From the NCBI GenBank assembly GCA_945889445.1, contig CAMDBX010000002.1:2041-66040 (forward strand): 64,000 bases of DNA, written 5' to 3'. Shown here one piece after another: positions 10,285 through 27,159 of the stretch. Below the pieces are notes generated by a model. The model did no database searches. It was not told the DNA's origin and saw nothing but the letters and a program-made list of their open reading frames with translations. Source of the DNA: Rhizobium sp. Q54 (GTDB taxonomy: Bacteria; Pseudomonadota; Alphaproteobacteria; Rhizobiales; Aestuariivirgaceae). A program made the position numbers and the translations under genes. Within the stretch, counting starts at the first letter, position 1, and every line of letters starts with the position of its first letter.

Positions 10285-10485
10285 ATGGTGGCGGACGAGG
10301 CCTCGCAGGCCGGCTTCCGTGACTTTGCCAAGGCGATCGAGGCCGCCCTCGGCGGATTTCTGGCTGCCTTGCCCCCTGATCAGCAGGAAAACGCCCTGCG
10401 ATTATCTTATGAAATCGCTTTAGGCTGCGGGGATGATGGCGAGGAACCTGCCCCGCCCCGCCTTCGTCTGGTCTATTCGCGCTAG
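10285..10485 (+). CDS. Possible small hypothetical protein (66 aa)
   Basis: Only the 3' third of the 143-aa track ORF (10054-10485) has GC-rich third codon positions like neighbouring genes (MVADEASQAGFRDFAKAIEAALGG...). No recognisable family and no clear SD. Confidence 0.25.
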   Translation: MVADEASQAGFRDFAKAIEAALGGFLAALPPDQQENALRLSYEIALGCGDDGEEPAPPRLRLVYSR

Positions 10486-12004
10486 AAGTCGGTTTTTTCG
10501 CCGCCCTCGCTGATCCGGCGGGCCACGAAGGCGTCGATCTGTTCGAGGGCTGCGGGGTCCAGCCAGGGTTCGCGATATTCACCCAATGCCTGCTTCCACA
10601 GAGCATTGGCTTTTTTCTCGGCAGTGGGCGATCCGGCTGCCTGCCAGCTCTGGAATTTGCGCCAATCCGAGATCAGCGGCTGGTAAAAGGCTGTCGAATA
10701 GCGCTCGAGTGTTTGCTGCGCGCCGAAGAAATGGCCACCCGGCCCCACCTCCATCATGGCATCGAACGCCATCTCGGCGTCATCCACCACCACGGGCTTG
10801 AGGAATTCCTGCATCATCTGCAGCAGGTCAACGTCAAGGGCGAACTTCTCGTAGGAGGCGACGAGGCCGCCCTCCAGCCAGCCTGCCGCATGCTGGATGA
10901 TGTTGCCGCCACCCATGATGGCGCCCCACAGCGAGAACACCGTCTCTTAGCCGCCTGCGCATCCACGCTGTTGGCAGCATTGGTGCTGGAGGTACGGTAG
11001 GGCAACTTGTAGCGCCGCGCCAGTTGCCCACCGATGACGCAGGCCTTCATGTATTCCGGCGTACCGAAGGCGGGCGCTCCTGACTTCATGTCGACGTTGG
11101 ATGTGAAGCCGCCATAGACAAAGGGTGCGCCAGGCCTGACGAGCTGCGACAGGGCGAGCCCCGCCAGCGCCTCGGCATTCTGTTCCACCATGCCACCCGC
11201 GATCGACACGGGCGCCATGGCGCCGAGCAGCGTGAAGGGCGTTACCACCACAATCTGGTTCAGCCGCGCCATCTCGATGATGCCCATCGCCATCGGCATG
11301 TCGAGCTTCAGCGGCGAATTGGTGTTGATCACCGTATAGACGGAGGGCTCGGCCAGCAGCTGCTCATGGCTGATGCCGCGCGCCAGCCTGACGATCTCGA
11401 CGCCGTCGAACAGACGGGCCCGGCCCGTCGCATACACAAAGGAAACCTTGTCCGAATACACCATCTTGTTGCGCGTGATGTGCAGGTGCCGCACCGAGGC
11501 ATGAACGTCAAGCGCATCGACGGATGCACCGCCCGCCGTGTGCACGGTGTTGAAGAACTGCGAAAGCTTCACGAAGTTGCCCGCATCCTCGAGCGTGCCG
11601 GGGCGCCGACCCCTGTCGAGGTCTGAGCAGTTGGGCGGGCCGCCCACCGGCGCGAAGGCGATCCAGTTGCCACCCACCCGAATGTTGTGGGCCGGGTTGC
11701 GCGCATGGAAGGTGAACTGGGCGGGTGGCGTCTTCAGCGCCTGCTCGGCGATGTCGCGTCCAATCCGGACGCGGTCGCCATCGACCAGCGCTCCAGCCTT
11801 CTGCAAGATGTCGCGGGCCTCGGGCAGCAGCACATCCATGCCGATCACCTCGAGAACCTTCATCGACTGGCGATGGATGGCCTCGATCTGGTCGTCGGAC
11901 AGGATGCGCGTAGGCTCCAGCGTGTGCTGGGGCTGCTTCCAAGGCAATTGCTGGATCGGGGTGTGCGCGGCGTCGGCCCGGCGGCCACGACGCTGGACGT
12001 TCAC
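10482..12004 (-). pseudogene. MttB-superfamily (COG5598) methyltransferase paralog, disrupted by a 1-nt frameshift near 10945
   Basis: Track ORFs 10814-12274 (N-part) and 10482-10940 (C-part) are colinear with the intact paralog at 13842-15404. The GTG start at 12004 overlaps the psuG stop (GTGA). Restoring one G in AAG-AG gives ...DAQAAKETVFSLWG..., compared with ...DAQAAYESVFSLWG... in the paralog. Confidence 0.85.
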
Positions 12005-12921
12005 GTAGCGCGACCGGCGAAGGCGACGGCAATGGCCGCTGCAATCTTCGCATTGTGTTTGACGAGGGCGATGTTGGCCGCAAGAGATCGGCCAGCCGTC
12101 ACGCCCGCGATCTCGGCCAGCAGGAAAGGGGTTGTCTCCTTGCCCATGATGCCATGCGCTTCCGCCTTCTTCACTGCGGCCTTGATGACCGGCGCGATTT
12201 CGGCAGCCGGAATCTCCGCTTCCGACGGAATGGGGTTGGCGACGACCACGCCGCCCTTCAGCCCCATCGCCCACTTGGCACGCATCACATCCGCCACCTC
12301 TGCGGGCGTGGCGCAGCTCATCGGCACCGCATGGCCGCTCTCCCGTGAGTAGAAGGCTGGAAATTCCGTCGTGCCCAGGCCAATCACCGGCACGCCCAGC
12401 GTCTCCAGCGTTTCGAGTGTGAGTGCGAGGTCGAGGATGGCCTTGGCGCCCGCCGTCACCACGGCCACGTCGCTCGCCGCGAATTCCATCATGTCGGCGG
12501 AGATATCGAAAGTCTTCTCTGCACCCCTGTGCACGCCACCGATTCCGCCGGTGGCAAAGACATGGATACCCGCCATCGCCGCGATGCGCATGGTGGAGGC
12601 AACCGTCGTCGCCCCGTCCAGCTTCTGCGCCACGATGAAGGGAAGGTCACGCACCGACACCTTGGCAATGGAACGGCCTTCGCGCCCGAAACGGTCCAAC
12701 TCCTCCGCCGTAAGCCCCACCTTCAGCACGCCGCCGATGATGGCGATGGTGGCGGGCACCCCACCGCCTTCGCGCACGATGTCTTCCACCGCGCGGGCCG
12801 TCTCCACGTTCTGCGGGTAGGGCATGCCATGCGCGATAATGGTCGATTCGAGCGCCACCACGGGGCGCACCTCATCGAGGGCGCGGCGGACCTCAGGCGT
12901 GAAGGACAAGGGATAGGCCAC
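12001..12921 (-). CDS. psuG: Pseudouridine-5'-phosphate glycosidase
   Basis: 306 aa. Motifs shared with E. coli YeiN as I recall it: VVALESTIIAHGMPYPQN, ATIAIIGG, GATTVASTM, FATGGIGGVHRGAE and TFDISADM. The GTG start lies 9 nt after the psuK stop, with GGAG between. Confidence 0.9.
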   Translation of the reverse strand: MAYPLSFTPEVRRALDEVRPVVALESTIIAHGMPYPQNVETARAVEDIVREGGGVPATIAIIGGVLKVGLTAEELDRFGREGRSIAKVSVRDLPFIVAQKLDGATTVASTMRIAAMAGIHVFATGGIGGVHRGAEKTFDISADMMEFAASDVAVVTAGAKAILDLALTLETLETLGVPVIGLGTTEFPAFYSRESGHAVPMSCATPAEVADVMRAKWAMGLKGGVVVANPIPSEAEIPAAEIAPVIKAAVKKAEAHGIMGKETTPFLLAEIAGVTAGRSLAANIALVKHNAKIAAAIAVAFAGRAT

Positions 12922-12930
12922 GTCGACTCC

Positions 12931-13842
12931 TCAGATGAACCCCGCAAGTTCAAGCAGACTATCACGGCTGAGGCCGGATGCCACCGACTGCGAGGAGGAC
13001 AGCTTGATCGCGGCGGCACATTGCCCGAGCTGAATGGATTGCGCGAGGCTTCTTCCATCGAGCAATCCGCAGACGAGACCGGCCACGGCTGCATCGCCCG
13101 CCCCTGTCACGTCGGCGATGGCGGGCACCCGCACCGGATCGATTGACATCACGTTCGCCCCGTCGGAGGCCAGCGCGCCCGCGCTGCCACGGTGTAGCAC
13201 GACATTGGCGAAGCCAAGCGCGTGAAGCCCGGCCAGTGCCACCACCCCGTCACCGCCTACAAGTGCCGCAAGCTGCTGTGCATTGGGGGTGATGGCGAAG
13301 ACAGGTGCCGCACGCGCAAAGGCAAGCAGCTTCTGCGCCTTCGGCACCGACACGGGCTCGATCAGCAGCCTGACGTTCCGTTCCGCCGAGAACCGGCAAA
13401 GCCAGGCAAGGCACGCCTGTGACAGGTTGCAGTCCGCCACCAGCATGTCGACCTCGGAAAAACTCTCCGCATGCAACGCAAGCTGTGCGGGCGTCAGCGT
13501 CTCCATGGCGCGCATGTCGTTGACGGCGCTGACCAGTTCGCCCGTTGCATCGAGGATCGCGAGATAGGAACCCGTGGGCTCGCTGACCGTGAGGGCCATC
13601 GAAAGATCGACCGCCGCATCGGCGCAGGCCCGCCGCAGCAGCTGCCCATTCGCATCATCGCCCAGCGCGGTGACGAGCGACACGGATATGCCGAGATAGG
13701 CCAGGTTCTCGGCAATGTTGCGGCCAACGCCACCCGCCGAGACTGTTACCTCGCCCGGGTTCGATATGGCGGCCACGAAGGATCCGCGCGCACGGCCCTT
13801 GATGTCGACGTTGGCACCGCCAATGACGATGACGCGCGGCAT
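12931..13842 (-). CDS. psuK: Pseudouridine kinase (PfkB/ribokinase family)
   Basis: The ATG at 13842 shares one base with the upstream MttB stop (TGATG). VIVIGGANVDIKG, GGVGRNIAENLAYLG, VNDMRAM and DVTGAGDA are colinear with E. coli YeiC as I recall it. The longer track ORF (to 14007) is an upstream extension inside the MttB gene. Confidence 0.85.
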   Translation of the reverse strand: MPRVIVIGGANVDIKGRARGSFVAAISNPGEVTVSAGGVGRNIAENLAYLGISVSLVTALGDDANGQLLRRACADAAVDLSMALTVSEPTGSYLAILDATGELVSAVNDMRAMETLTPAQLALHAESFSEVDMLVADCNLSQACLAWLCRFSAERNVRLLIEPVSVPKAQKLLAFARAAPVFAITPNAQQLAALVGGDGVVALAGLHALGFANVVLHRGSAGALASDGANVMSIDPVRVPAIADVTGAGDAAVAGLVCGLLDGRSLAQSIQLGQCAAAIKLSSSQSVASGLSRDSLLELAGFI

Positions 13843-15404
13843 CAGAAGTCGGTGGGCGCACCACCCTCGGCCTTGCGCTTCTCGACGAAGGCGTTGAGTT
13901 CGTCCCTGATCGCGGGATCGATGGCGGGCTCCTGATAATCCGCCAGCGCCTGCTTCCACACTGCATTGGCCTTCTGCCACGCCTCGGGCTTGCCCGCCGC
14001 GAGCCATTGCTGGTTGTTGCGCCAGTCGGAGACGATGGGCGAATAAAAGGCATTGGTATAGCGCGCCAGCGTGTGCTGCGCGCCGAAGAAGTGGCCGCCG
14101 GGGCCGACCTCGCGGATCGCCTCGACACCCAGCGCATCCTCGGTCGTTTCCAGCGGCTGCATGAACTCGCTCACCATCTGGATCAGGTCGCAGTCGAGAA
14201 TGAACTTCTCGAAGCTCGCAACGAGGCCACCTTCAAGCCAGCCTGCGCCATGCATGATCAGATTGCCGCCACCCATGGTGAGGCCCCACAGCGAAAACAC
14301 GCTCTCATATGCGGCCTGCGCATCCATGGTGTTGGCAGCACAGGTGTTCGACGTGCGGAACGGAACCCTGTAGCGCCGCGCCAACTGGCCGCCGACCACT
14401 GTGGCCTTCATGTATTCCGGCGTACCGAAGGCGGGTGCCCCCGATTTCATGTCGACGTTGGAGGTGAAGCCGCCATAGATCACCGGCGCACCCTTGCGCA
14501 CGAGCTGCGTGAAGGCGATGCCGGCAAGCGCCTCGGCGTTCTGCTCCACCAATGCACCCGCCATCGTGACAGGCGCCATGGCGCCCGCCAGCGTGAAGGG
14601 CGTGACGCAGACGATCTGGTTCCGCGATGACATCTCGAGAATGCCCTGCAGCATCGGCGTGTCGAGCTTCAACGGCGAGTTGGTGTTGATGATCGTGAAC
14701 AGAGATGGTTCCCGCTCCAGCTGCTCCTGGCTGATGCCGCGGCCGATGCGGGCGATCTCGATGCCGTCGCGGATACGCTCGCGGCCCAGTGAATAGGCGT
14801 GGAACGGCTTGTCCGTCAGCAGCACCATGTCGCGCAGTGCTTCGAGGTGGCGGATCGAGGCATGGATGTCGATTGGCTCCACCGGATATCCGGAAAGGAA
14901 CCCGATGCAGTTGAAATACTGGCCGAGCCTCAGGAAGTTCTTGTAGTCGTGATAGTTTCCGGTGCGGCGGCCACCGTCCATGTCAGAGGCGTTTGGCGGG
15001 CTCGCCACAGTGCCGAAGGTGATGGAATTGCCGCCTATGCGCTGGTCATTGTCCGGGTTGCGCGCGTGGAAGTTGAATTCAGAGGGTGCGCTGGAGATCA
15101 GTTCCTCGATCATCGCCGGGTCGAAGCGGACACGTTCGCCATCGACGCTCGCGCCCGCCTTTTTCAGCATGTCGCGCGCTTCAGGCAGCGTGAAATCCAT
15201 ACCGATTTCCGACAGAACCTTCAGCGAAGCGTGGTGGATCGCTTCAAGCTCATCGGAAGAGACGATCTCCATCGCCGGGAACAGCCGTTTCAGCTTGCGG
15301 CGCGGTAGCTGCGGAACGGGATTGCGCCCGCCGGCGCTCCCACCGCGGCGTCCGCCGCCCTCGCGGCGCGGTTTGCGGGTGCTATCGGATTCGATGTTCG
15401 TCAC
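13842..15404 (-). CDS. MttB-superfamily (non-pyrrolysine) methyltransferase, paralog 2
   Basis: 520-aa uninterrupted ORF, so no in-frame TAG. Family blocks: INTNSPLKLD, GGFTSNVDMKSGAPAFGTPEYMKA, DAQAAYES and GPGGHFFGAQHT. The GTG start lies 3 nt after the LysR stop. Confidence 0.9.
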   Translation of the reverse strand: MTNIESDSTRKPRREGGGRRGGSAGGRNPVPQLPRRKLKRLFPAMEIVSSDELEAIHHASLKVLSEIGMDFTLPEARDMLKKAGASVDGERVRFDPAMIEELISSAPSEFNFHARNPDNDQRIGGNSITFGTVASPPNASDMDGGRRTGNYHDYKNFLRLGQYFNCIGFLSGYPVEPIDIHASIRHLEALRDMVLLTDKPFHAYSLGRERIRDGIEIARIGRGISQEQLEREPSLFTIINTNSPLKLDTPMLQGILEMSSRNQIVCVTPFTLAGAMAPVTMAGALVEQNAEALAGIAFTQLVRKGAPVIYGGFTSNVDMKSGAPAFGTPEYMKATVVGGQLARRYRVPFRTSNTCAANTMDAQAAYESVFSLWGLTMGGGNLIMHGAGWLEGGLVASFEKFILDCDLIQMVSEFMQPLETTEDALGVEAIREVGPGGHFFGAQHTLARYTNAFYSPIVSDWRNNQQWLAAGKPEAWQKANAVWKQALADYQEPAIDPAIRDELNAFVEKRKAEGGAPTDF

Positions 15405-15407
15405 GGC

Positions 15408-16334
15408 TTACTTTCCTTTTTCGCGATAGGCTTCAAGCGCCGGGTCGGCAGCGATCTGCTTCACCAGCCAATCCTCGAAGCGCTTGATCTTGGGTTTCAT
15501 CCGATGCTCGGCATTGCAGGCGAAAAGCCAGTTGTGCCGGTGCTGAACCTTCAGGTCGAAGGGCTGAACCAGCCGCCCCGCCTTGATTTCCTCCGTGGCG
15601 AAGGGGCCGATGGTCATGGCCACGCCCCGCCCCTCGATTGCCGCTTCCTGCGCCAGGATGTAACTGTCGAAGGCCAGACGGTCCGAGAGCTTGATGCCGT
15701 CGACACCTGCTTCTTCGAGCCACAGGTGCCAGTCCTCCTCCGCCGTATAGACATAGAGCAGCTTGTGCTTCTTCAGGTCCTCTGGCGTCTTCAGCGCGTT
15801 GGGGCCCTTCAGCAGTTCCGGCGAGCAGATGGGCGTCAGCAACGACTTGAAAAGCGTGCGGTAGTAATGATCCGGCGTCCGGTTGCGGGCGAGGATCAGC
15901 CCGACGTCCACATTCTTCTCGTCGAAGTCCCAGTCGAAATAGGAGGTCGAGAGCCTGACCTTCATATCGGGGTAGCGCTTCTCGAAGTCATGCAGCCGGG
16001 GAATCAGCCACTTGAGCGCCACCGTCACATAAACCTGCAGGGTGAGTTCGTTGTCGGACGCCGAGGGCTTCAGCGCGCGGGTCTGCGCCTCGATCATGTC
16101 GAAGGCCTCGCGCACCGGCGGGAAATAGGTGTGGCCGGCCTGGGTCAGTTCGGCGCGCCGCGCATCGCGCCGGAACAATTGCACACCGAGGCGCTGCTCC
16201 AGCGACTTCACCTGGTGGCTCACCGCCGAGCGGGTAATGCCCAGTTCGCTGGCGGCAAGGCGAAAACTGCCCAGCCGGGCCGCCGCCTCGAAGGCGGTCA
16301 GTGCACGTAAAGGGGGCAGGTCGCGTCTGGCCAA
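15408..16334 (-). CDS. LysR-family transcriptional regulator (GcvA/AmpR-like)
   Basis: 308 aa. N-terminal wHTH LRALTAFEAAARLGSFRLAASELGITRSAVSHQVKSLE followed by a LysR substrate-binding domain. TTG start at 16334. Confidence 0.9.
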   Translation of the reverse strand: MARRDLPPLRALTAFEAAARLGSFRLAASELGITRSAVSHQVKSLEQRLGVQLFRRDARRAELTQAGHTYFPPVREAFDMIEAQTRALKPSASDNELTLQVYVTVALKWLIPRLHDFEKRYPDMKVRLSTSYFDWDFDEKNVDVGLILARNRTPDHYYRTLFKSLLTPICSPELLKGPNALKTPEDLKKHKLLYVYTAEEDWHLWLEEAGVDGIKLSDRLAFDSYILAQEAAIEGRGVAMTIGPFATEEIKAGRLVQPFDLKVQHRHNWLFACNAEHRMKPKIKRFEDWLVKQIAADPALEAYREKGK

Positions 16335-16516
16335 GATTCCTCACCACTGGTCTGGAGACCCCTTGTATCACCATGGAATTCAGGGCGTTAGGGGCCAAGG
16401 GGTGGAAAACCGCCTGTCTAATGGTGAAAAAAACTGACGCTACCTGGAAAAAGATAGGCCATTGAATCTCCACATCGAACCGGTGGATATAGGACCCAGA
16501 TCAGGAGTCTAAATCC

Positions 16517-18094
16517 ATGAGTGCTGTCGAAGACCTTTCCCGCCGCCGCGGTGGCCGCGAAGCCCGCAAGGCGATGCGTTCGCGCCCCATTCCCATGGCG
16601 GATGCCGCCGTGCGCCCCGGCATGGAGGGCGGCCAGTACAAGCCGCTCACCGACCACGAGATGCAGCGCATCCACGAGACCGCCCTCAAGCTGCTTGAAA
16701 CCGTAGGCCTCGCCCAGGCCATCCCGACCTGCGTCGACGCGATGACGGCGAAGGGCTGCTGGATCAACGAGCACGGCCGGTTGTGCATCCCGCGCGCCCT
16801 CGTCGAGGATACGCTGGCATCCTGCGCCCGCAACTTCGTGCTGCACGCGCGGGACCCCAAGCATGACATGCAGCCCTCGGGCAACAAGGTCTATTTCGGC
16901 ACCGCCGGTGCGGCCGTCCACATCGTCGAGCCGGAAACCCGCAGCTACCGCGAATCGCTGCTCGTCGATCTCTATGACGCGGGCCGCATCGTCGACAATT
17001 GCGAGCACATCCACTTCTACCAGCGCCCGGTCACGGCGCGTGACATGATCACCGGCCACGACCTCGACATCAACACCATGTACGCCTGCCTCGCCGGCAC
17101 CGAAAAGCACGTCGGCACCTCCATGGTCGAGCCGGGCCATGTGGATGAATGCCTGCAGATCCTGCACGTGCTTGCGGGTGGCGAAGACAAGTGGCGCGAG
17201 CGCCCCTTCGTGTCGCAGTCCAACTGCTTCGTCGTGCCGCCCATGAAGTTCGCCGAAGACGCCTGCCGCTGCCTTGAAGTCGCTGCCCGCGGCGGCATGC
17301 CGGTGCTGCTGCTGTCGGCCGCACAGGCCGGAGCGACATCGCCCGCAGCCCTTGCCGGCACCATCGTGCAGGCCGTATCGGAGTGCCTCGCCGGCCTCGT
17401 CTACATCAATTGCATCGTCCCCGGCGCCATCGCCATCTGGGGCCCGTGGCCGTTCGTGTCAGACCTTCGCACGGGGGCCATGTCGGGTGGTTCGGGCGAG
17501 CAGGCGCTCATCACATCGGGCTGCGCCCAGATGGGCCATTACTACAATCTCACCGTCGGCTCCGCCGCCGGCATGTGCGACTCGAAGCTCCCCGACATGC
17601 AGGCGGGCTACGAGAAGGGCGTCACCGCCGGCATCTCGGCGATGACCGGCATCAACATGCTCTACGAGTCCGCCGGCATGCACGCATCGCTGCTGGGCTT
17701 CTGCCTCGAGAGCCTGCTGATCGACAACGACATGCTGGGCTCCATCAACCGCAACGTCCGCGGCATCGAGGTCAATGAGGATACGCTCTCCCTCGAAGTC
17801 ATCGCCAATGTCTGCATCGAAGGCCCCGGCCACTACCTCGGCAACGAGCAGACGCTGGCGCTGATGCAGAAGGACTATGTCTACCCCTCCGTCTCCAACC
17901 GCATGAGCCCCAAGGAATGGAACGAGGCCGGCAAGCCCGACATCGTCGAGCGCGCGGCGGCACGGAAGCGCGAGATCCTGTCCACCTATTACCCGGACTA
18001 TATCCCGCGCCACATCGACGAGCAGATCCGCGCCAAACACGACATCAAGCTGCCGCGCAGCGTGATGGAACCGGGCGACCCGCGCTGGGCGTAA
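16517..18094 (+). CDS. MttB-superfamily (non-pyrrolysine) methyltransferase, paralog 3 (divergent)
   Basis: 525-aa uninterrupted ORF. GGMPVLLLSAAQAGATSP, DSKLPDMQAGYEKG and LLIDNDMLG are colinear with Methanosarcina MttB as I recall it. Met occupies the position that I align with pyrrolysine. Confidence 0.9.
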   Translation: MSAVEDLSRRRGGREARKAMRSRPIPMADAAVRPGMEGGQYKPLTDHEMQRIHETALKLLETVGLAQAIPTCVDAMTAKGCWINEHGRLCIPRALVEDTLASCARNFVLHARDPKHDMQPSGNKVYFGTAGAAVHIVEPETRSYRESLLVDLYDAGRIVDNCEHIHFYQRPVTARDMITGHDLDINTMYACLAGTEKHVGTSMVEPGHVDECLQILHVLAGGEDKWRERPFVSQSNCFVVPPMKFAEDACRCLEVAARGGMPVLLLSAAQAGATSPAALAGTIVQAVSECLAGLVYINCIVPGAIAIWGPWPFVSDLRTGAMSGGSGEQALITSGCAQMGHYYNLTVGSAAGMCDSKLPDMQAGYEKGVTAGISAMTGINMLYESAGMHASLLGFCLESLLIDNDMLGSINRNVRGIEVNEDTLSLEVIANVCIEGPGHYLGNEQTLALMQKDYVYPSVSNRMSPKEWNEAGKPDIVERAAARKREILSTYYPDYIPRHIDEQIRAKHDIKLPRSVMEPGDPRWA

Positions 18095-18095
18095 G

Positions 18096-18755
18096 GTGGA
18101 ACACCCGATCCTGACAGCGATCCGCCGGGTGGGCTTCTCCCCGCTCGGCTGGTTCGCACCGAAGCCTGATGACCGGGCGCCGCAAGGCGCCCGTTTCGTC
18201 ATCCTGATCGGCAATGCCGGGCCTGCCATGTTCCGCCGCTTCGCCGCCGAGCGCGACCCGTCCACCGATACCATGGACGCCTGGACCCGCGACGTGGTCA
18301 CCCTCCTCGCGCGAGACCTCGAGGCGCAAGCCGTCTACCCCTTCGACATGAACCCGCCATGGCCCTTCCTCACCTGGGCCAGGCGCGGAGGTGCGGGCCA
18401 CGTCTCTCCCCTGGGCCTCAACATCCACCCGACTTACGGCCTGTGGCACGCCTATCGCGCCGCCCTGCTCTTCCCCGTCGAGTTCGACATTCCTGTTCAG
18501 CCCCCCGGGCCCCACCCCTGCGAATCCTGCGCAACAAAGCCATGCCTCACCGCATGTCCGGTCGGGGCTTTCGACGGCGTCTCCTATGACGTTCCGGCCT
18601 GCGCAGCACATCTGGCAAAACCAGCCGGCAATGACTGCATGCGCGGCGGATGCCTTGCGCGCCATGCCTGCCCCGTGGGACAAGGCTTTGCCTATGCCCC
18701 GGCACAGGCGGAGTTCCACATGTGGGCCTTCCTCACGGCCCGCCAGAAGGCTTGA
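18096..18755 (+). CDS. Fe-S cluster protein (two Cys clusters; ferredoxin-like, QueG/RdhA-type C-terminal motif)
   Basis: 219 aa. The GTG start lies 1 nt after the mttB3 stop. It has CESCATKPCLTACP (CxxCxxxCxxxCP) plus CMRGGCLARHACP. The exact family cannot be assigned by eye. Confidence 0.6.
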   Translation: MEHPILTAIRRVGFSPLGWFAPKPDDRAPQGARFVILIGNAGPAMFRRFAAERDPSTDTMDAWTRDVVTLLARDLEAQAVYPFDMNPPWPFLTWARRGGAGHVSPLGLNIHPTYGLWHAYRAALLFPVEFDIPVQPPGPHPCESCATKPCLTACPVGAFDGVSYDVPACAAHLAKPAGNDCMRGGCLARHACPVGQGFAYAPAQAEFHMWAFLTARQKA

Positions 18756-18759
18756 AACG

Positions 18760-19665
18760 ATGTATGACCTGATCCGGCAGAAGCTCGCCAGGGGCGAACC
18801 CATCATCCTCGATGGCGGCACCGGCACCGACATCCAGCGCCGCGGCGTGCCGATGAGCAATTCGACCTGGTGCGCGGAGGCCAACCTCACCCACCCGGAT
18901 GTGGTGCGCGACGTACACGCCGACTACATCAAGGCGGGTGCGGACATCATCATCGCCAACACCTTCGCCACATCGGCACTTCTCTTCAATGCGCTCGACC
19001 GAGACGACGAACTGCTGGCCATCGACAAGTCTGCGGTGAAGATCGCCAGGGACGCCGCCAAGGGCCATAATGTTGCGGTTGCGGGCTCCATGTCCACCAT
19101 GCGCCCCGTCGTTGCCGGAAGCGACCGTACCTCGAAGCAGCGTGAATGGCCGGAGGACGAGGCCCGCGTCCTGTTCAAGAGCAAGGCGGACAACCTCGCC
19201 GCAGCGGGCGTCGACCTCATCATGATGGAGATGATGCGCGATACGGATTATTCCGTCTGGGCAACCGAAGCCGCACAGGCAACGGGCCGTTCCGTCTGGA
19301 TCGGCATCTCCGTCGAACGCCATGACGGCAAGCTCACCGGATTCGGCCGCGAGGACCAGGACTTCAACACCGTGGCGCGCGTGCTCTCAGCACTCAATCC
19401 TGACGTGATCTCGATCATGCACACCTCGCCCAACGACACGGACGAAGCGATCGACATCCTGCGGAAATACTGGAAAGGCCCGGTCGGCGCCTACCCCGAG
19501 AGCGGCTATTTCAAGATGCCGGACTGGACTTTCGTCGACATCATACCGCCGGATGAATTGGTGGAACGCTCCAGGGCCTGGAAGAAGAAGGGCGTCACTG
19601 CCTTTGGCGGCTGCTGCGGCCTCGGGCCGGAGCATATCACCGCACTCCACAAGGCTTTCACATGA
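18760..19665 (+). CDS. Homocysteine S-methyltransferase domain protein (MetH N-terminal/BHMT/MmuM fold)
   Basis: The ATG at 18760 lies 4 nt after the previous stop. 301 aa with ILDGGTGTDIQRRG, ADIIIANTFATS and C-terminal FGGCCGLGPEHI (zinc-ligand Cys pair). The track ORF start at 18391 is an out-of-context extension. Confidence 0.85.
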   Translation: MYDLIRQKLARGEPIILDGGTGTDIQRRGVPMSNSTWCAEANLTHPDVVRDVHADYIKAGADIIIANTFATSALLFNALDRDDELLAIDKSAVKIARDAAKGHNVAVAGSMSTMRPVVAGSDRTSKQREWPEDEARVLFKSKADNLAAAGVDLIMMEMMRDTDYSVWATEAAQATGRSVWIGISVERHDGKLTGFGREDQDFNTVARVLSALNPDVISIMHTSPNDTDEAIDILRKYWKGPVGAYPESGYFKMPDWTFVDIIPPDELVERSRAWKKKGVTAFGGCCGLGPEHITALHKAFT

Positions 19666-20045
19666 AAACCGGATCCTGCCTTTGCGGCGCTGTCAGCTTC
19701 GAAGTCCGCGGCGACCTCCGCCCGGTGCTTGCCTGCCACTGCATCCAGTGCCGCAAGCAGACCGGCAACTACATGTCCGCCACGGCCTGCGCCGACAGCG
19801 AATTGGCATTCACGAAGCAGGACGGCCTCACGTGGTTCCGCTCCAGCGACATCGCCCAGCGCGGCTTCTGCAAGGCGTGCGGTTCGGTGCTGTTCTGGAA
19901 GCGTGACGGAAGCGACTCAACATCGATCTGCGCCGGTGCCATCGATGGCGCGACGGACACCTATCTCGAAGGCCACATCTATTGCGAGAGTGCTGGTGAC
20001 TACTACGCCATCAGCGGCGGTGCCTATCGCAAGGACGAATGGTAG
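19662..20045 (+). CDS. GFA-family (glutathione-dependent formaldehyde-activating / CENP-V-like) zinc protein
   Basis: 127 aa, with an ATGA overlap on the upstream gene. Cys pattern CLCGAV...CHCIQCRK...CKACGS is typical of the GFA fold. Confidence 0.8.
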   Translation: MKTGSCLCGAVSFEVRGDLRPVLACHCIQCRKQTGNYMSATACADSELAFTKQDGLTWFRSSDIAQRGFCKACGSVLFWKRDGSDSTSICAGAIDGATDTYLEGHIYCESAGDYYAISGGAYRKDEW

Positions 20046-20140
20046 GGGATTCATCTGTATTCTACGTTTCAAGTGCCCGAGACGGAGCCCCTGCCTTCGC
20101 CAGGGTGACGCCACCAAAGAGGATTTTCTTGGGTGGCGCC

Positions 20141-20776
20141 TCAGGCGCGCGCCTTCAGGTCGCGCTCCAGCTCGCCATAGCCGGTGTAGCGATACTCATA
20201 GGCAAGACCCAGGCGCTTGGCCGCCGCCATCGCCTTCTTGGCCAGTTCCTCGTTGCGCGTCTGCGCCAGGAACACGATCTTGGTATAGTTCCCGAAATAG
20301 AGCGGCAGCAGCTCCGGGTGCCGATCCATCCCCAGCCCCTCCCAGATCAGCTTGTCGAAGTGCCGCGCCAGATAGTCGGTGAGGAAGAAGCCTGTCACAT
20401 CCTCCTCCGCCGTGCTGGCGAAGGTCTCCTGACTGGAGAAGAACGCATAGCAATGCGGGCCTTCGAGGCGCTCGATCCCCTCCTCCGCCAGCAGCTTGTC
20501 GATGTCACCACCGGTGCCGCAATCGCCATAGAGCACGAAGATCGACTGGTAGCGGGGCTTGGCTTCCCTGATTTTCTCGCGCAGGGCCGGCACGATCTTG
20601 TCGGGCGTGTTGTGCCACTTGGCAGGCAGGCACTGCAGGTCGAAGGCCGTCCAGCGGTTGCGCTCGATCAGATCCACGATCTCGCGGCCCAAAGCACCGC
20701 AGGCCAGGAGAAGAACCTTCCCCTGGCCTGGCTTGAACTCGAATTCGTCAGATGGCTTGAGATTGACAAGGGTCAT
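20141..20776 (-). CDS. DUF1638-like protein
   Basis: 211 aa. VLLLACGALGREI...LPAKWHNTPDKI...VLYGDCGTGG...GPHCYAFF matches my recollection of the DUF1638 pattern (..AC..L..E...LH..P..L...YG.CG...). It starts 15 nt after the corrinoid-protein stop, preceded by a GGGAGG SD. Confidence 0.65.
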   Translation of the reverse strand: MTLVNLKPSDEFEFKPGQGKVLLLACGALGREIVDLIERNRWTAFDLQCLPAKWHNTPDKIVPALREKIREAKPRYQSIFVLYGDCGTGGDIDKLLAEEGIERLEGPHCYAFFSSQETFASTAEEDVTGFFLTDYLARHFDKLIWEGLGMDRHPELLPLYFGNYTKIVFLAQTRNEELAKKAMAAAKRLGLAYEYRYTGYGELERDLKARA

Positions 20777-20791
20777 GAAGACCCTCCCAAA

Positions 20792-21493
<702 letters not shown>

Positions 21494-21513
21494 CAGCTGT
21501 CTCCGGAGGACAA

Positions 21514-21526
21514 ATCTTTGAAAGAT
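21514..21526. promoter_or_regulatory. Inverted repeat ATCTTT-g-AAAGAT in the corrinoid-gene leader
   Basis: Perfect 6-bp arms, AT-rich in a GC-rich spacer, 21 nt upstream of the corrinoid-protein ATG (minus strand). Confidence 0.3.
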
Positions 21527-21654
21527 CACAATAGGCCCGGGCGCGAAACGCCTTTCGCCAGCGGGCGACCTCCCCATGCCGGAAAGCGACGGTTGAGGCA
21601 AGCGGAAAGCCCGGTTAATGGTTGCTTCCCCTTGTTTGAACCGGATTTTTCACC

Positions 21655-22899
21655 ATGACCGCCGCCCTCGACGTCGCCGCCATCCGCGCCCAGTTCCCCG
21701 CCCTTGTGCTCAAGGACGGCGGCCGCGACCGAATCTACTTCGACAACCCGGCCGGAACCCAGGTGCCGCAACGGGTGATCGACCGCACGGTGGACTGCCT
21801 GGCCAACCGCAATGCCAACCTGGGCGGCTATTTCACCACCACGGTGGAGGCGGGCGAACTGGTGGACCTCGCCCATCAGGCCTGTGCGGATTTCTACAAT
21901 GCCGCGAGCATGAACGAGATCGTGTTCGGCCAGAACATGACCAGCCTGACGCTCCACATGTCACGCTGCCTTGGCAAGAAGCTGAAGCGCGGTGACGAGA
22001 TCGTGCTCTCCCGCATGGACCATGACGCCAATGTCGCCCCATGGCTGCTGCTGGCTGACGACCTCGGACTCATCGTGCGCTGGATCGACTTCGACACCGA
22101 GACCTACGAGTTCCCCGATGATGCGCTCACCAAGGTTCTGAGCGACAAGACGAGGATTCTCGCCATGGGCATGGCCTCGAACTGCACCGGCACGGTGAAC
22201 GACACCAAACGTTTCGCAGCAGAAGCGAAGAAGGCCGGAGCCATCGTCTATCTCGATGCCGTCCAATATGCGCCCCACTATGCCATCGACGTCCAGGACC
22301 TCGGCGCCGATTTCGTCGTCTCCTCAGCCTACAAATGGTTCGGCCCGCATCAGGGCATCCTGTGGGGCCGCGAGGCACTGCTGAAGGACACGTTCGGCTA
22401 CAAGGTCCGCCCTGCCGGCGAGGAGCTGCCGCACAAGTTCGAGACCGGTACGCTGTCTCACGAAGGCATGGCCGGCACGCTGGGTGCCATCGAATATCTC
22501 GAGCAGTTCGGCGCAGGCGAGACGCGGGCAAAGCGCATTGCCTCCGCGTGGAACAATCTTGCCGACTATGAGCACAAGATCACGCTGAAGCTGATCGAAG
22601 GGCTGAAAACCTTCAAGGGCCTGACGATCCGCGGCATCACCTCGGCCAATGCCATGCACCGTCGCGTGCCCACCGTCTCCTTCACGCTGGAAGGGCATCA
22701 TCCGGAAACTCTTGCCAAGGCCTTCGCCAAGGACAGCATCTTCGTCTGGTCCGGGCACAATTACGCCATTGAACCCGTGGGCCGCATGGGACTGATGGAC
22801 AAGGGCGGCGTGCTGCGCGTCGGCCTTGCGCACTATAACACTGAGGACGAGGTGGACGCCCTGCTCTCCTCACTCACCCGTCAGATCAGGAGCGCCTGA
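21655..22899 (+). CDS. Class-V PLP aminotransferase, cysteine-desulfurase-like
   Basis: 414 aa. LDVAAIRAQFPAL...IYFDNPAGTQVP at the N-terminus and SSAYKWFGPHQG (PLP lysine region). Confidence 0.85.
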   Translation: MTAALDVAAIRAQFPALVLKDGGRDRIYFDNPAGTQVPQRVIDRTVDCLANRNANLGGYFTTTVEAGELVDLAHQACADFYNAASMNEIVFGQNMTSLTLHMSRCLGKKLKRGDEIVLSRMDHDANVAPWLLLADDLGLIVRWIDFDTETYEFPDDALTKVLSDKTRILAMGMASNCTGTVNDTKRFAAEAKKAGAIVYLDAVQYAPHYAIDVQDLGADFVVSSAYKWFGPHQGILWGREALLKDTFGYKVRPAGEELPHKFETGTLSHEGMAGTLGAIEYLEQFGAGETRAKRIASAWNNLADYEHKITLKLIEGLKTFKGLTIRGITSANAMHRRVPTVSFTLEGHHPETLAKAFAKDSIFVWSGHNYAIEPVGRMGLMDKGGVLRVGLAHYNTEDEVDALLSSLTRQIRSA

Positions 22900-26142: not shown

Positions 26143-27159
26143 TCAATTCCCGCGGCGGCGTTCGCGGCGGGCGGCGCCAGCTGCGGCGGCGTCGTGGCCC
26201 TTGGCCAGTTCGGACACCGGACCAAGCTTCGTCTCGATGAGTTCCAGCGACGGGCGGGTGCCCTTCGTGTAGGTCTCGAGCGACTTGCGCATGGAGGCCA
26301 GGTGCTCCGGGCTGGTGCCGCAGCAGCCGCCGATGATCTTGGCGCCTGCATCGAGCGCGATGCGGGCATAGTCTGCCATCAGCTCAGGCGTGCCGGTGTA
26401 GTGGATGTGGCCATCGACATATTGCGGGATGCCGCAATTGCCCTTGGCGACCACGGCCGCGTCTGGCCGGGCTTCCGAGATCCCGAGCACTGTGGCGATC
26501 AGCTCCGAGGCGCCGACGCCGCAATTGGCGCCGATGGCAACGGGCTGGGTGGCAAGCGCTGCCGTGATGGCGCCGAAGGCCTTGGGCGTGATGCCCATCA
26601 TGGTGCGGCCGTTGGTGTCGAAGCTCATGGTGGTGACGATCGGCAGGCTCGCCCTGGCGCAGCCCTCGACGGCGGCCTTGAGTTCCTCCTCGGACGACAT
26701 GGTCTCGATCCAGATCACATCGACGCCGCCTTCCTTCAAGGCCAGCGCCTGCTCGGCGAAGGCCTTGACGGCCTCGTCATGCGACATGGCACCGACCGGC
26801 TCCATGATCTCGCCGGTGGGACCGACGGAGCCGCCGACATAGACCGGGCGGCCTGCCGCATCGGCCTCGGCGCGGGCGTTCTTCGCCGCGGCAATGTTGA
26901 TCTCCCGGACCTGGTCCTGCGCGTTGTGCAGCTTCAGCCGGTGGCGGTTGCCGCCGAATGAGTTGGTGAGCACGATATCCGCCCCCGCCTCGATGAAGCG
27001 GCGGTGCAGCGAGCGCACCCGCTCGGGGTGGTCGAAGTTCCACATTTCCGGGGCGTCGCCCGATTCGAGGCCCATCTGGAAATAATTCGTTCCGGTGGCG
27101 CCATCGGCCAGCAGCCAGGGACGCGTGGCGAGCGCTTCGGTGAAGGACGGGCTGGTCAT
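26143..27159 (-). CDS. Betaine-homocysteine S-methyltransferase (B12-independent, pfam02574 fold)
   Basis: 338 aa. LLADGATGTNYF, ADIVLTNSFGGN and IIGGCCGTSPEHL (Zn Cys pair). A GGAGG SD precedes the ATG at 27159. It resembles the rhizobial Bmt type. Confidence 0.85.
   Translation of the reverse strand: MTSPSFTEALATRPWLLADGATGTNYFQMGLESGDAPEMWNFDHPERVRSLHRRFIEAGADIVLTNSFGGNRHRLKLHNAQDQVREINIAAAKNARAEADAAGRPVYVGGSVGPTGEIMEPVGAMSHDEAVKAFAEQALALKEGGVDVIWIETMSSEEELKAAVEGCARASLPIVTTMSFDTNGRTMMGITPKAFGAITAALATQPVAIGANCGVGASELIATVLGISEARPDAAVVAKGNCGIPQYVDGHIHYTGTPELMADYARIALDAGAKIIGGCCGTSPEHLASMRKSLETYTKGTRPSLELIETKLGPVSELAKGHDAAAAGAARRERRRGN

Follow-up and report, generated by a model that had tools for sequence, protein, structure and literature searches.

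We examined a 64,000-nucleotide (nt) stretch of contig CAMDBX010000002.1 from Rhizobium sp. Q54 (family Aestuariivirgaceae), referred to here in its whole length as the window, in which genes encoding pseudouridine kinase (psuK) as well as pseudouridine-5'-phosphate glycosidase (psuG) lie between two paralogous methyltransferase genes of the MttB superfamily (mttB2 and mttB1), downstream of a gene for a LysR-type regulator (lysR). The reading that we favor, at a probability of roughly 60%, is that the psuK-psuG pair (psuKG) is a passenger cassette in a betaine-methyltransferase operon, which was inserted once and has been inherited since, and that the two activities have no pathway in common. 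An initial annotation made from the sequence alone had listed, as the third of its alternatives, that psuKG simply landed inside a tandem mttB duplication, and it is this alternative that the data favor, since the psuKG-positive loci form a single clade of the MttB2 tree and basal lineages carry mttB2 and mttB1 without psuKG. In such an operon, the GcvA-like LysR regulator would turn on both this operon and the divergent one, and MttB2 (and MttB1 where it is intact) would demethylate a carboxylated quaternary amine (glycine betaine being the likeliest) and pass the methyl group to the neighboring MtgC-like corrinoid protein, from which the corrinoid-bound methyl would go to homocysteine or folate. 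PsuK and PsuG, translated from the same message, would degrade pseudouridine to uracil plus ribose 5-phosphate; methyl transfer and pseudouridine breakdown would have no intermediate in common, and their sole link would be co-expression from the LysR-controlled promoter region. The portable psuK-psuG pair would have entered the slot between the tandem mttB paralogs in an ancestor of the Aestuariivirga-like Hyphomicrobiales clade.

The features of the operon and of the adjoining divergent promoter region are as follows (labels of the form L081 are our own names for loci and contigs).

15408-16334, minus strand: lysR, the first gene of the operon, encoding a GcvA-subfamily LysR-type regulator (PF00126 and PF03466 matches).
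13842-15404, minus strand: mttB2, encoding a predicted non-pyrrolysine MttB-superfamily methyltransferase of 520 amino acids, a probable betaine:corrinoid methyltransferase (PF06253, 2e-199).
12931-13842, minus strand: psuK, pseudouridine kinase, 303 amino acids (PfkB, PF00294, 4e-40).
12001-12921, minus strand: psuG, pseudouridine-5'-phosphate glycosidase, 306 amino acids (PF04227, 2.7e-126).
10951-12004, minus strand: 5' part of mttB1, with its frame intact until the lesion (PF06253 profile positions 5-374).
10947-10950, minus strand: mttB1 lesion, a 1-nt deletion plus TAT>TAA (window compared with L081 and L082).
10482-10946, minus strand: 3' part of mttB1, one frame off from the 5' part (open reading frame (ORF) 10940-10482, PF06253 profile positions 355-500).
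16421-16440, no strand assigned: candidate LysR-binding site in the lysR/mttB3 divergent promoter region (TCACC at 16427-16423).
16517-18094, plus strand: mttB3, a distant, divergent MttB paralog, 525 amino acids (PF06253, 3e-105).

The minus-strand order and the coordinates of lysR, mttB2, psuK and psuG given in the initial annotation were borne out by the sequence and by family searches, and its four junctions, read directly from the sequence, are exactly as it described them. The lysR stop is separated by 3 nt from the mttB2 start (TAA-gcc-GTG; in L093 and L094 the two overlap by 4 nt), the psuK start overlaps the mttB2 stop by 1 nt (TGATG), a 9-nt spacer containing GGAG lies between psuK and psuG (TGA-ggagtcgac-GTG), and the GTG start of mttB1 overlaps the psuG stop by 4 nt (GTGA). 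All genes thus lie on one strand with overlaps or spacers of at most 9 nt, and a scan of the minus strand from 10482 to 16334 found no terminator-like sites. A scan for an internal psuKG promoter also found none, a result that is uninformative for alphaproteobacterial promoters. Since the close spacing of the five genes leaves no room for internal promoters and no terminator-like site lies between them, transcription most likely starts from the 182-nt intergenic region (16335-16516) that lysR and mttB3 have in common, and lysR-mttB2-psuK-psuG-(mttB1) most likely forms a single, tightly packed, co-transcribed unit. The regulator scored 302.9 bits against the NCBIfam GcvA-subfamily model (cut-off 288). 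In an alignment of the lysR/mttB3 intergenic region from 14 related loci, the motif TCACC was invariant and a GGTGA-N7-TCACC palindrome was found in most, its left arm being degenerate in the window; this element is plausibly a LysR box, and we treat it as a candidate. No riboswitch was found in an Rfam scan of the whole window, and a megablast of the region against plasmids returned a single weak match, inside mttB2 (Shinella).

PsuK phosphorylates pseudouridine, and PsuG cleaves the resulting pseudouridine 5'-phosphate, releasing uracil and ribose 5-phosphate. The window PsuG is 59% identical to Escherichia coli YeiN (4GIJ) over 297 ungapped residues (2e-103), and its match to PF04227 covers profile positions 1-291 of 291. 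Its residues E25, K87, H131, D139, D143, K160 and N283 align with YeiN E31, K93, H137, D145, D149, K166 and N289, a set that includes what we take to be the catalytic Lys166 together with Glu31, Lys93 and the metal-binding Asp (E. coli numbering). The top Protein Data Bank (PDB) match of the window PsuK was E. coli PsuK (7VKP, 2.5e-46), ahead of ribokinases. All 11 of the residues through which the E. coli enzyme contacts pseudouridine (N14, D16, S30, G41, N45, Y97, M114, N143, V166, S167 and K170) are identical in the window protein, where they are N11, D13, S27, G38, N42, Y93, the Met of NDM, the Asn of DCN and the Val, Ser and Lys of PVSxxK. In the E. coli structure, Asn143 binds N3 and O4 of pseudouridine and Ser30 faces N1 (PMC9247573). 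The best NCBIfam model for the window PsuK was likewise pseudouridine kinase (NF007355), with a score of 167 bits that lies under the curated equivalog cut-off of 540; in our judgment the scope of this equivalog model is narrow and stays near the enterobacterial protein. PsuK and PsuG thus appear to be orthodox pseudouridine enzymes, with no sign in their residues of an altered substrate. The window pair resembles E. coli psuK-psuG (yeiC-yeiN) in comprising the same two families with the kinase before the glycosidase, and differs in having no promoter space of its own, in being enclosed by two MttB genes downstream of a LysR gene, and in that we noticed no nucleoside transporter gene adjoining it.

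We compared the three MttB proteins with each other and with members of known structure. MttB2 and MttB1 are 58.6% identical, in agreement with the roughly 60% that had been estimated by eye, and both are 22-23% identical to MttB3, from which they had also been described as distant. The MttB2 match to PF06253 spans profile positions 3-500 of 500 in an uninterrupted ORF with no in-frame stop, and MttB1 matches the family in two pieces owing to its lesion. In the alignment with the solved trimethylamine methyltransferase 7XCL, Thr354 of MttB2 takes the position of the pyrrolysine, and MttB2 and MttB1 are, judged from these alignments, predicted non-pyrrolysine members of the family. The characterized non-pyrrolysine MttB members all use quaternary amines, and Desulfitobacterium hafniense MtgB binds glycine betaine through Y97, R312, H348 and F356 (PMC13080624). 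The PDB matches of MttB2 include 4YYC (3e-118) and the glycine betaine methyltransferase 9YCE (8e-99), and it shares the fold family of D. hafniense MtgB (2QNE/9YCE, 8e-99 to 3e-99). The carboxylate-binding pair is kept, as Arg350 and His385 of MttB2 align with R312 and H348 of MtgB, and MttB1 has the Arg and His as well.

Further evidence on the substrate comes from the MttB homologs in loci L064-L080, which are 65-71% identical to MttB2 and are labeled Rhizobiaceae, Burkholderiales and other Proteobacteria. The six-position signature of MttB2, ARHWGY, was the same in all but one of the homologs compared from these loci, and in seven of the loci the gene directly after the MttB2-like one (66-71% identical) has DAO and GCV_T domains and resembles dimethylglycine dehydrogenase. 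Since the Arg/His pair is kept and homologs with the same signature adjoin dimethylglycine-dehydrogenase-like genes, we read MttB2 as a probable betaine methyltransferase, whose substrate would be a carboxylated betaine and in all likelihood glycine betaine. In three of the seven loci a SoxB-like gene comes after the DAO+GCV_T gene (for example, L066 11586-15297), and these genes form a compact candidate cluster for the demethylation of glycine betaine, dimethylglycine and sarcosine.

The divergent paralog MttB3 lacks the Arg/His pair of MtgB, with Gly and Glu aligned in its place, and it scored 373 bits against the trimethylamine methyltransferase model, compared to 313 for MttB2; its methyl donor is probably another one, which may lack a carboxyl group. 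Within mttB3, Rfam PYLIS_3 matched 17574-17672 on the plus strand at 45 bits (gathering score 38), the sole Rfam match in the window. Pyrrolysine recoding of mttB3 was rejected, as the ORF has no interruption and the codon opposite the UAG of the model is UGU (Cys); the match reflects coding homology downstream of the former pyrrolysine position.

In order to place the arrangement among genomes, relatives of MttB2 (65-96% identical) were surveyed with one genome per GTDB species, using the best 80 of at least 578 matches, and locus counts were taken from tblastn mapping of the window proteins onto these 80 loci. An ORF caller based on GC content at third codon positions was used only for flagging conserved neighbors, as it missed genes, the window psuG among them, and picked antisense ORFs. 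In 46 species-level loci, mttB2 is immediately followed, on its own strand, by psuK and/or psuG; these are labeled Aestuariivirga, Aestuariivirgaceae, Hyphomicrobiales and a few other names, and are freshwater and soil bacteria. The arrangement is therefore not unique to this strain, as the initial annotation had allowed that it might be, and its recurrence in 46 species-level genomes makes the adjacency more than chance; because it is conserved, a regulatory link through co-expression may also exist. In most psu-positive loci, no more than about 21 nt separate the psuK match from the end of the mttB2 match, and almost all of those whose contig extends upstream have lysR and the divergent mttB3. 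mttB1 follows psuG in 12 of the 46 (fragmented in one) and is absent from at least 24 that have enough sequence to judge. Two loci, L027 and L031, read mttB2-psuG-mttB1 without psuK, and in L005, L007, L023 and L060 mttB1 comes directly after mttB2. The psu genes are absent from 17 loci that carry the island, and more distant MttB2 homologs without lysR and mttB3 as neighbors have no psu genes. Approached from the glycosidase side, look-ups of PsuG proteins 83-86% identical to that of the window led to the same operon. The cultured relative Aestuariivirga litoralis encodes orthologs of MttB2 and PsuG, at 92% and 90% identity, on a single 666-kb contig. In L022 (11845-13344), mttB1 was recovered as four tblastn fragments and psuG was matched from residue 84 only, a pattern that suggests decay or an error-prone long-read assembly.

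The history of the insertion was read from a tree of MttB2 orthologs, in which a single large clade takes in every psuKG-positive locus. Below this clade are L058, L059 and L060, which carry mttB2 and a nearby mttB1 ortholog (at about 0.8 kb, about 5 kb and 91 nt from mttB2, respectively) and no psuKG; their MttB1 orthologs are 68-70% identical to the window MttB1 and 59-64% to MttB2. Both psuKG and mttB1 are missing from other lineages below the clade, where the mttB2 homologs are more distant. The simplest history would thus be an old mttB2/mttB1 tandem followed by one insertion of psuK-psuG between the paralogs, and the distribution suggests that, after the insertion, mttB1 was lost repeatedly, psuK occasionally, and both psu genes several times. 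Other cargo is also found between the paralogs, namely an aldo-keto reductase gene in L012 and L015 and five genes in L059, and L025 has genes for an HxlR protein and a flavodoxin-like protein in the place of psuK. Palindromic repeats of 130-175 nt, with predicted folding energies of -75 to -111 kcal/mol, occupy the mttB2-psuK spacer in L038 (11449-11624), L041 (7670-7820), L044 (2609-2739) and L055 (5162-5298), and look like insertions of the repetitive extragenic palindromic (REP) or miniature inverted-repeat transposable element (MITE) type.

Outside the clade, the PsuG contexts came from a tblastn of a plasmid collection and six regions, and the PsuG homolog search itself returned in-clade proteins only (at least 83% identical). 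No MttB gene was found within 7-8 kb of psuG in the records from Paroceanicella, Terrarubrum, Rhizobium johnstonii, Deinococcus, Acetoanaerobium and Gemmatirosa, and psuK lies directly upstream of psuG in five of these six. The R. johnstonii pRL12, Terrarubrum and Paroceanicella plasmids resemble the window in that kinase and glycosidase genes are adjacent on one strand. In contrast to the window, their neighbors are genes for an ATP-binding cassette (ABC) transporter, a 2-oxoglutarate (2OG) oxygenase, an enoyl-CoA hydratase, a nucleoside hydrolase or a major facilitator superfamily (MFS) transporter, with no MttB, and their PsuG proteins are about 51-55% identical to that of the window. Among the plasmid-collection records, the closest out-of-clade PsuG proteins were non-alphaproteobacterial (60-63% identical, compared to 50-53% for Rhizobiaceae), which is compatible with acquisition of psuKG by transfer.

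The last gene of the operon, mttB1, had been annotated as one gene from 12004 to 10482, which did not hold, as this span of 1523 nt is no multiple of three and the frame is broken. The frame that opens at 12004 reaches a stop at 10814, and the C-terminal 152 codons (10940-10482) lie in another frame. The independent metagenome contigs L081 and L082 match the window across mttB1 at 99.5% and 99.0% identity, respectively, and the MttB2 of both contigs is 100% identical to that of the window. At the lesion L081 and L082 read GCGGCCTATGAG and the window reads GCGGCTAAGAG, so that the window has lost one C at about 10950/10949 and has TAA for TAT at 10949-10947, within the Tyr codon of the DAQAAYE motif. 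As these near-identical contigs hold an intact gene for a 507-amino-acid MttB1, the window mttB1 either became a pseudogene very recently or reflects a local error in the assembly consensus, and the broken gene fits the repeated decay of mttB1 proposed above. Programmed frameshifting or pyrrolysine-like recoding at this site was ruled out, since the near-identical contigs read through it with Tyr.

Several points weigh against the favored reading or limit it. The mttB2-psuK-psuG linkage persists down to 71% identity in MttB2 and 41% in PsuK, a range of divergence over which the flanking synteny with holC, an ABC-F gene and ppc is lost, and linkage that outlasts flanking synteny is usually read as selection for linkage. 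Moreover, in L027 and L031, which have no psuK, psuG is still found between the two mttB genes. The survey consists of MttB2-anchored loci plus a few plasmid records, and the tree is a neighbor-joining tree of one protein, rooted with MttB1. The aromatic pair of the MtgB site is missing, with Ala134 in MttB2 or Gly in MttB1 at the position of Y97 and Gly in both at that of F356, and unlike D. hafniense MtgB the two enzymes have no equivalents of these residues. Because of this, glycine betaine is not proven as the substrate of MttB2 or MttB1, and we do not file them as MtgB of the D. hafniense type. The role of F356 may be taken over by W389, a Trp of the GWLEGG motif that lies four residues upstream of that position.

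The first of these points is the main argument for the competing explanations, the strongest of which is adaptive co-regulation: one LysR-controlled operon for the joint scavenging of methyl groups, pyrimidine and ribose, in which the enzymes keep their canonical substrates and betaines reach the cell jointly with pseudouridine, for instance when algal or bacterial cells lyse or exude them. We hold this to be possible, with the odds against it. It would account for an operon kept in 46 species while the outer synteny decays, for the tight mttB2-psuK spacing in most loci (a 1-nt overlap in the window), and for the conserved palindrome in the common promoter region, and it agrees with the near-full-length, single tblastn alignments of psuK and psuG in most loci with enough downstream sequence, which are consistent with intact genes. 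However, the arrangement has a single evolutionary origin and hence no independent replication, psuKG, psuK alone or mttB1 has repeatedly been lost with the remainder kept, the structured repeats between mttB2 and psuK break the coupling in several lineages, and the six psuG loci examined elsewhere have no MttB neighbor.

A true pathway, in which MttB2 and/or MttB1 would N-demethylate a nucleoside or nucleobase released by RNA turnover (for example m1- or m3-pseudouridine, or a cationic methyl-nucleoside) and hand it to PsuK and PsuG, is in our view improbable. The initial annotation had proposed substrates of this kind, either a pseudouridine with a methyl group on it or a ribosyl compound that bears a methylammonium group, and neither gained support, given the canonical PsuK and PsuG residues, the Arg/His pair kept in the MttB enzymes and the 17 island loci without psuKG. 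In favor of such a pathway, the adjacency is conserved, the aromatic pair seen in the solved glycine-betaine site is missing from MttB2 and MttB1, the pocket of E. coli PsuK can bind m1-pseudouridine (PMC9247573), and the literature searches turned up no paper on the question. Set against this, the mttB2/mttB1 pair is older than psuKG, the MttB2 signature is common to homologs coupled to dimethylglycine-dehydrogenase-like and SoxB-like genes, the PsuK residues that touch N1, N3 and O4 of pseudouridine are unchanged, and the characterized non-pyrrolysine MttB members all act on quaternary amines (PMC13080624). To an assembly artefact or chimera of metagenome-derived sequence we give next to no credence: the two-change lesion in mttB1, missing from near-identical contigs, is local, and the gene order of the window recurs in nine independently assembled contigs with 100% identical MttB2 and in dozens of genomes from different studies, which refutes a chimera as its source.

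The operon that carries the proposed passenger cassette is part of a larger set of methyl-transfer genes, in which mttB3 adjoins lysR in nearly all island loci and the following genes lie beyond mttB3.

18096-18755, plus strand: Cys-rich protein of cluster c8, 219 amino acids (gene call in L081).
18760-19665, plus strand: homocysteine S-methyltransferase-domain protein, MtgE-like, 301 amino acids (PF02574; L081 gene calls and NCBIfam).
19662-20045, plus strand: GFA-family gene (Pfam GFA domain).
20141-20776, minus strand: DUF1638 protein, of a family linked to corrinoid reactivation (PMC12478193; PF07796, 2e-27).
20792-21601, minus strand: corrinoid (B12-binding) protein, MtgC-like (PF02310 and PF02607).
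26143-27159, minus strand: second homocysteine methyltransferase, of the betaine-homocysteine methyltransferase (BHMT) type (NCBIfam betaine--homocysteine S-methyltransferase, 515 bits, cut-off 338).

In aerobic Alphaproteobacteria, the MttB-family enzyme MtgB methylates a separate corrinoid protein, MtgC, from which the methyl group then goes to tetrahydrofolate (through MtgD) or homocysteine (through MtgE), with DUF1638 and RamA-type proteins for reactivation (Mausz et al., PMC12478193). The window resembles the MtgBCDE systems of Ruegeria pomeroyi and Sinorhizobium meliloti (PMC12478193) in its types of parts, that is, PF06253 enzymes, a separate B12-binding protein, DUF1638 and homocysteine modules, and the genes matching PF02310 plus PF02607, PF07796 and PF02574 are all near the MttB-family genes, within 6 kb. 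It differs in having three MttB paralogs and in carrying psuK-psuG inside the operon, which is described for no MtgBCDE locus. The best NCBIfam model for the corrinoid protein was the glycine betaine-specific MtgC_2, at 204 bits and under the cut-off of 370, and this protein (20792-21601) is likely to be the methyl acceptor of the MttB enzymes. Neither a pterin-binding MtgD nor a RACo/RamA activase was found by tblastn in the 64-kb window; several related loci have a RACo/RamA-like activase and a pterin-binding methyltransferase near the operon, and MtgD and RamA/RACo may be encoded elsewhere in the genome from which the window comes. Overall, by its domain content, the island of the window is a predicted split cobalamin-dependent methyl-transfer island of the MtgB/C/E type.

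The conserved c8 protein has the motif CESCEAKPCLSACP, and at least 19 related loci carry its gene with mttB3 on one side and the homocysteine methyltransferase gene on the other. The protein matched no Pfam family, and its similarity to MMACHC/CblC and to the epoxyqueuosine reductase QueG was faint only; it may be a cobalamin-processing Fe-S protein. Two long ORFs were set aside as artefacts, one of 539 amino acids (20039-21658, plus strand) that is antisense to the DUF1638 and corrinoid protein genes, and one of 424 amino acids (18391-19665, plus strand) that is the 301-amino-acid homocysteine methyltransferase gene over-extended into c8. The GFA-family gene is 21 codons shorter than in L081, with a stop replacing a Gln, and the truncation is outside the Pfam GFA domain.

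Literature searches (MttB with pseudouridine; psuG or psuK with trimethylamine methyltransferase) returned nothing relevant to a link between MttB and pseudouridine catabolism. On present evidence, the mttB2-psuK-psuG arrangement is undescribed, and it is a clade-specific operon layout of known families rather than a new system. If psuKG is a passenger cassette, a neighborhood in which stop and start codons overlap and which is conserved in about 46 species would have arisen from one insertion and would tell little about shared biochemistry, and it would serve as a caution for annotation based on guilt by association. If, on the other hand, the methyl-nucleoside pathway were true, it would add a new class of MttB substrate beyond the quaternary-amine osmolytes and a route for recycling methylated RNA nucleosides. 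The locus also extends the recently described split islands of the MtgB/C/E type to freshwater and soil Aestuariivirga-like Hyphomicrobiales with three MttB paralogs.

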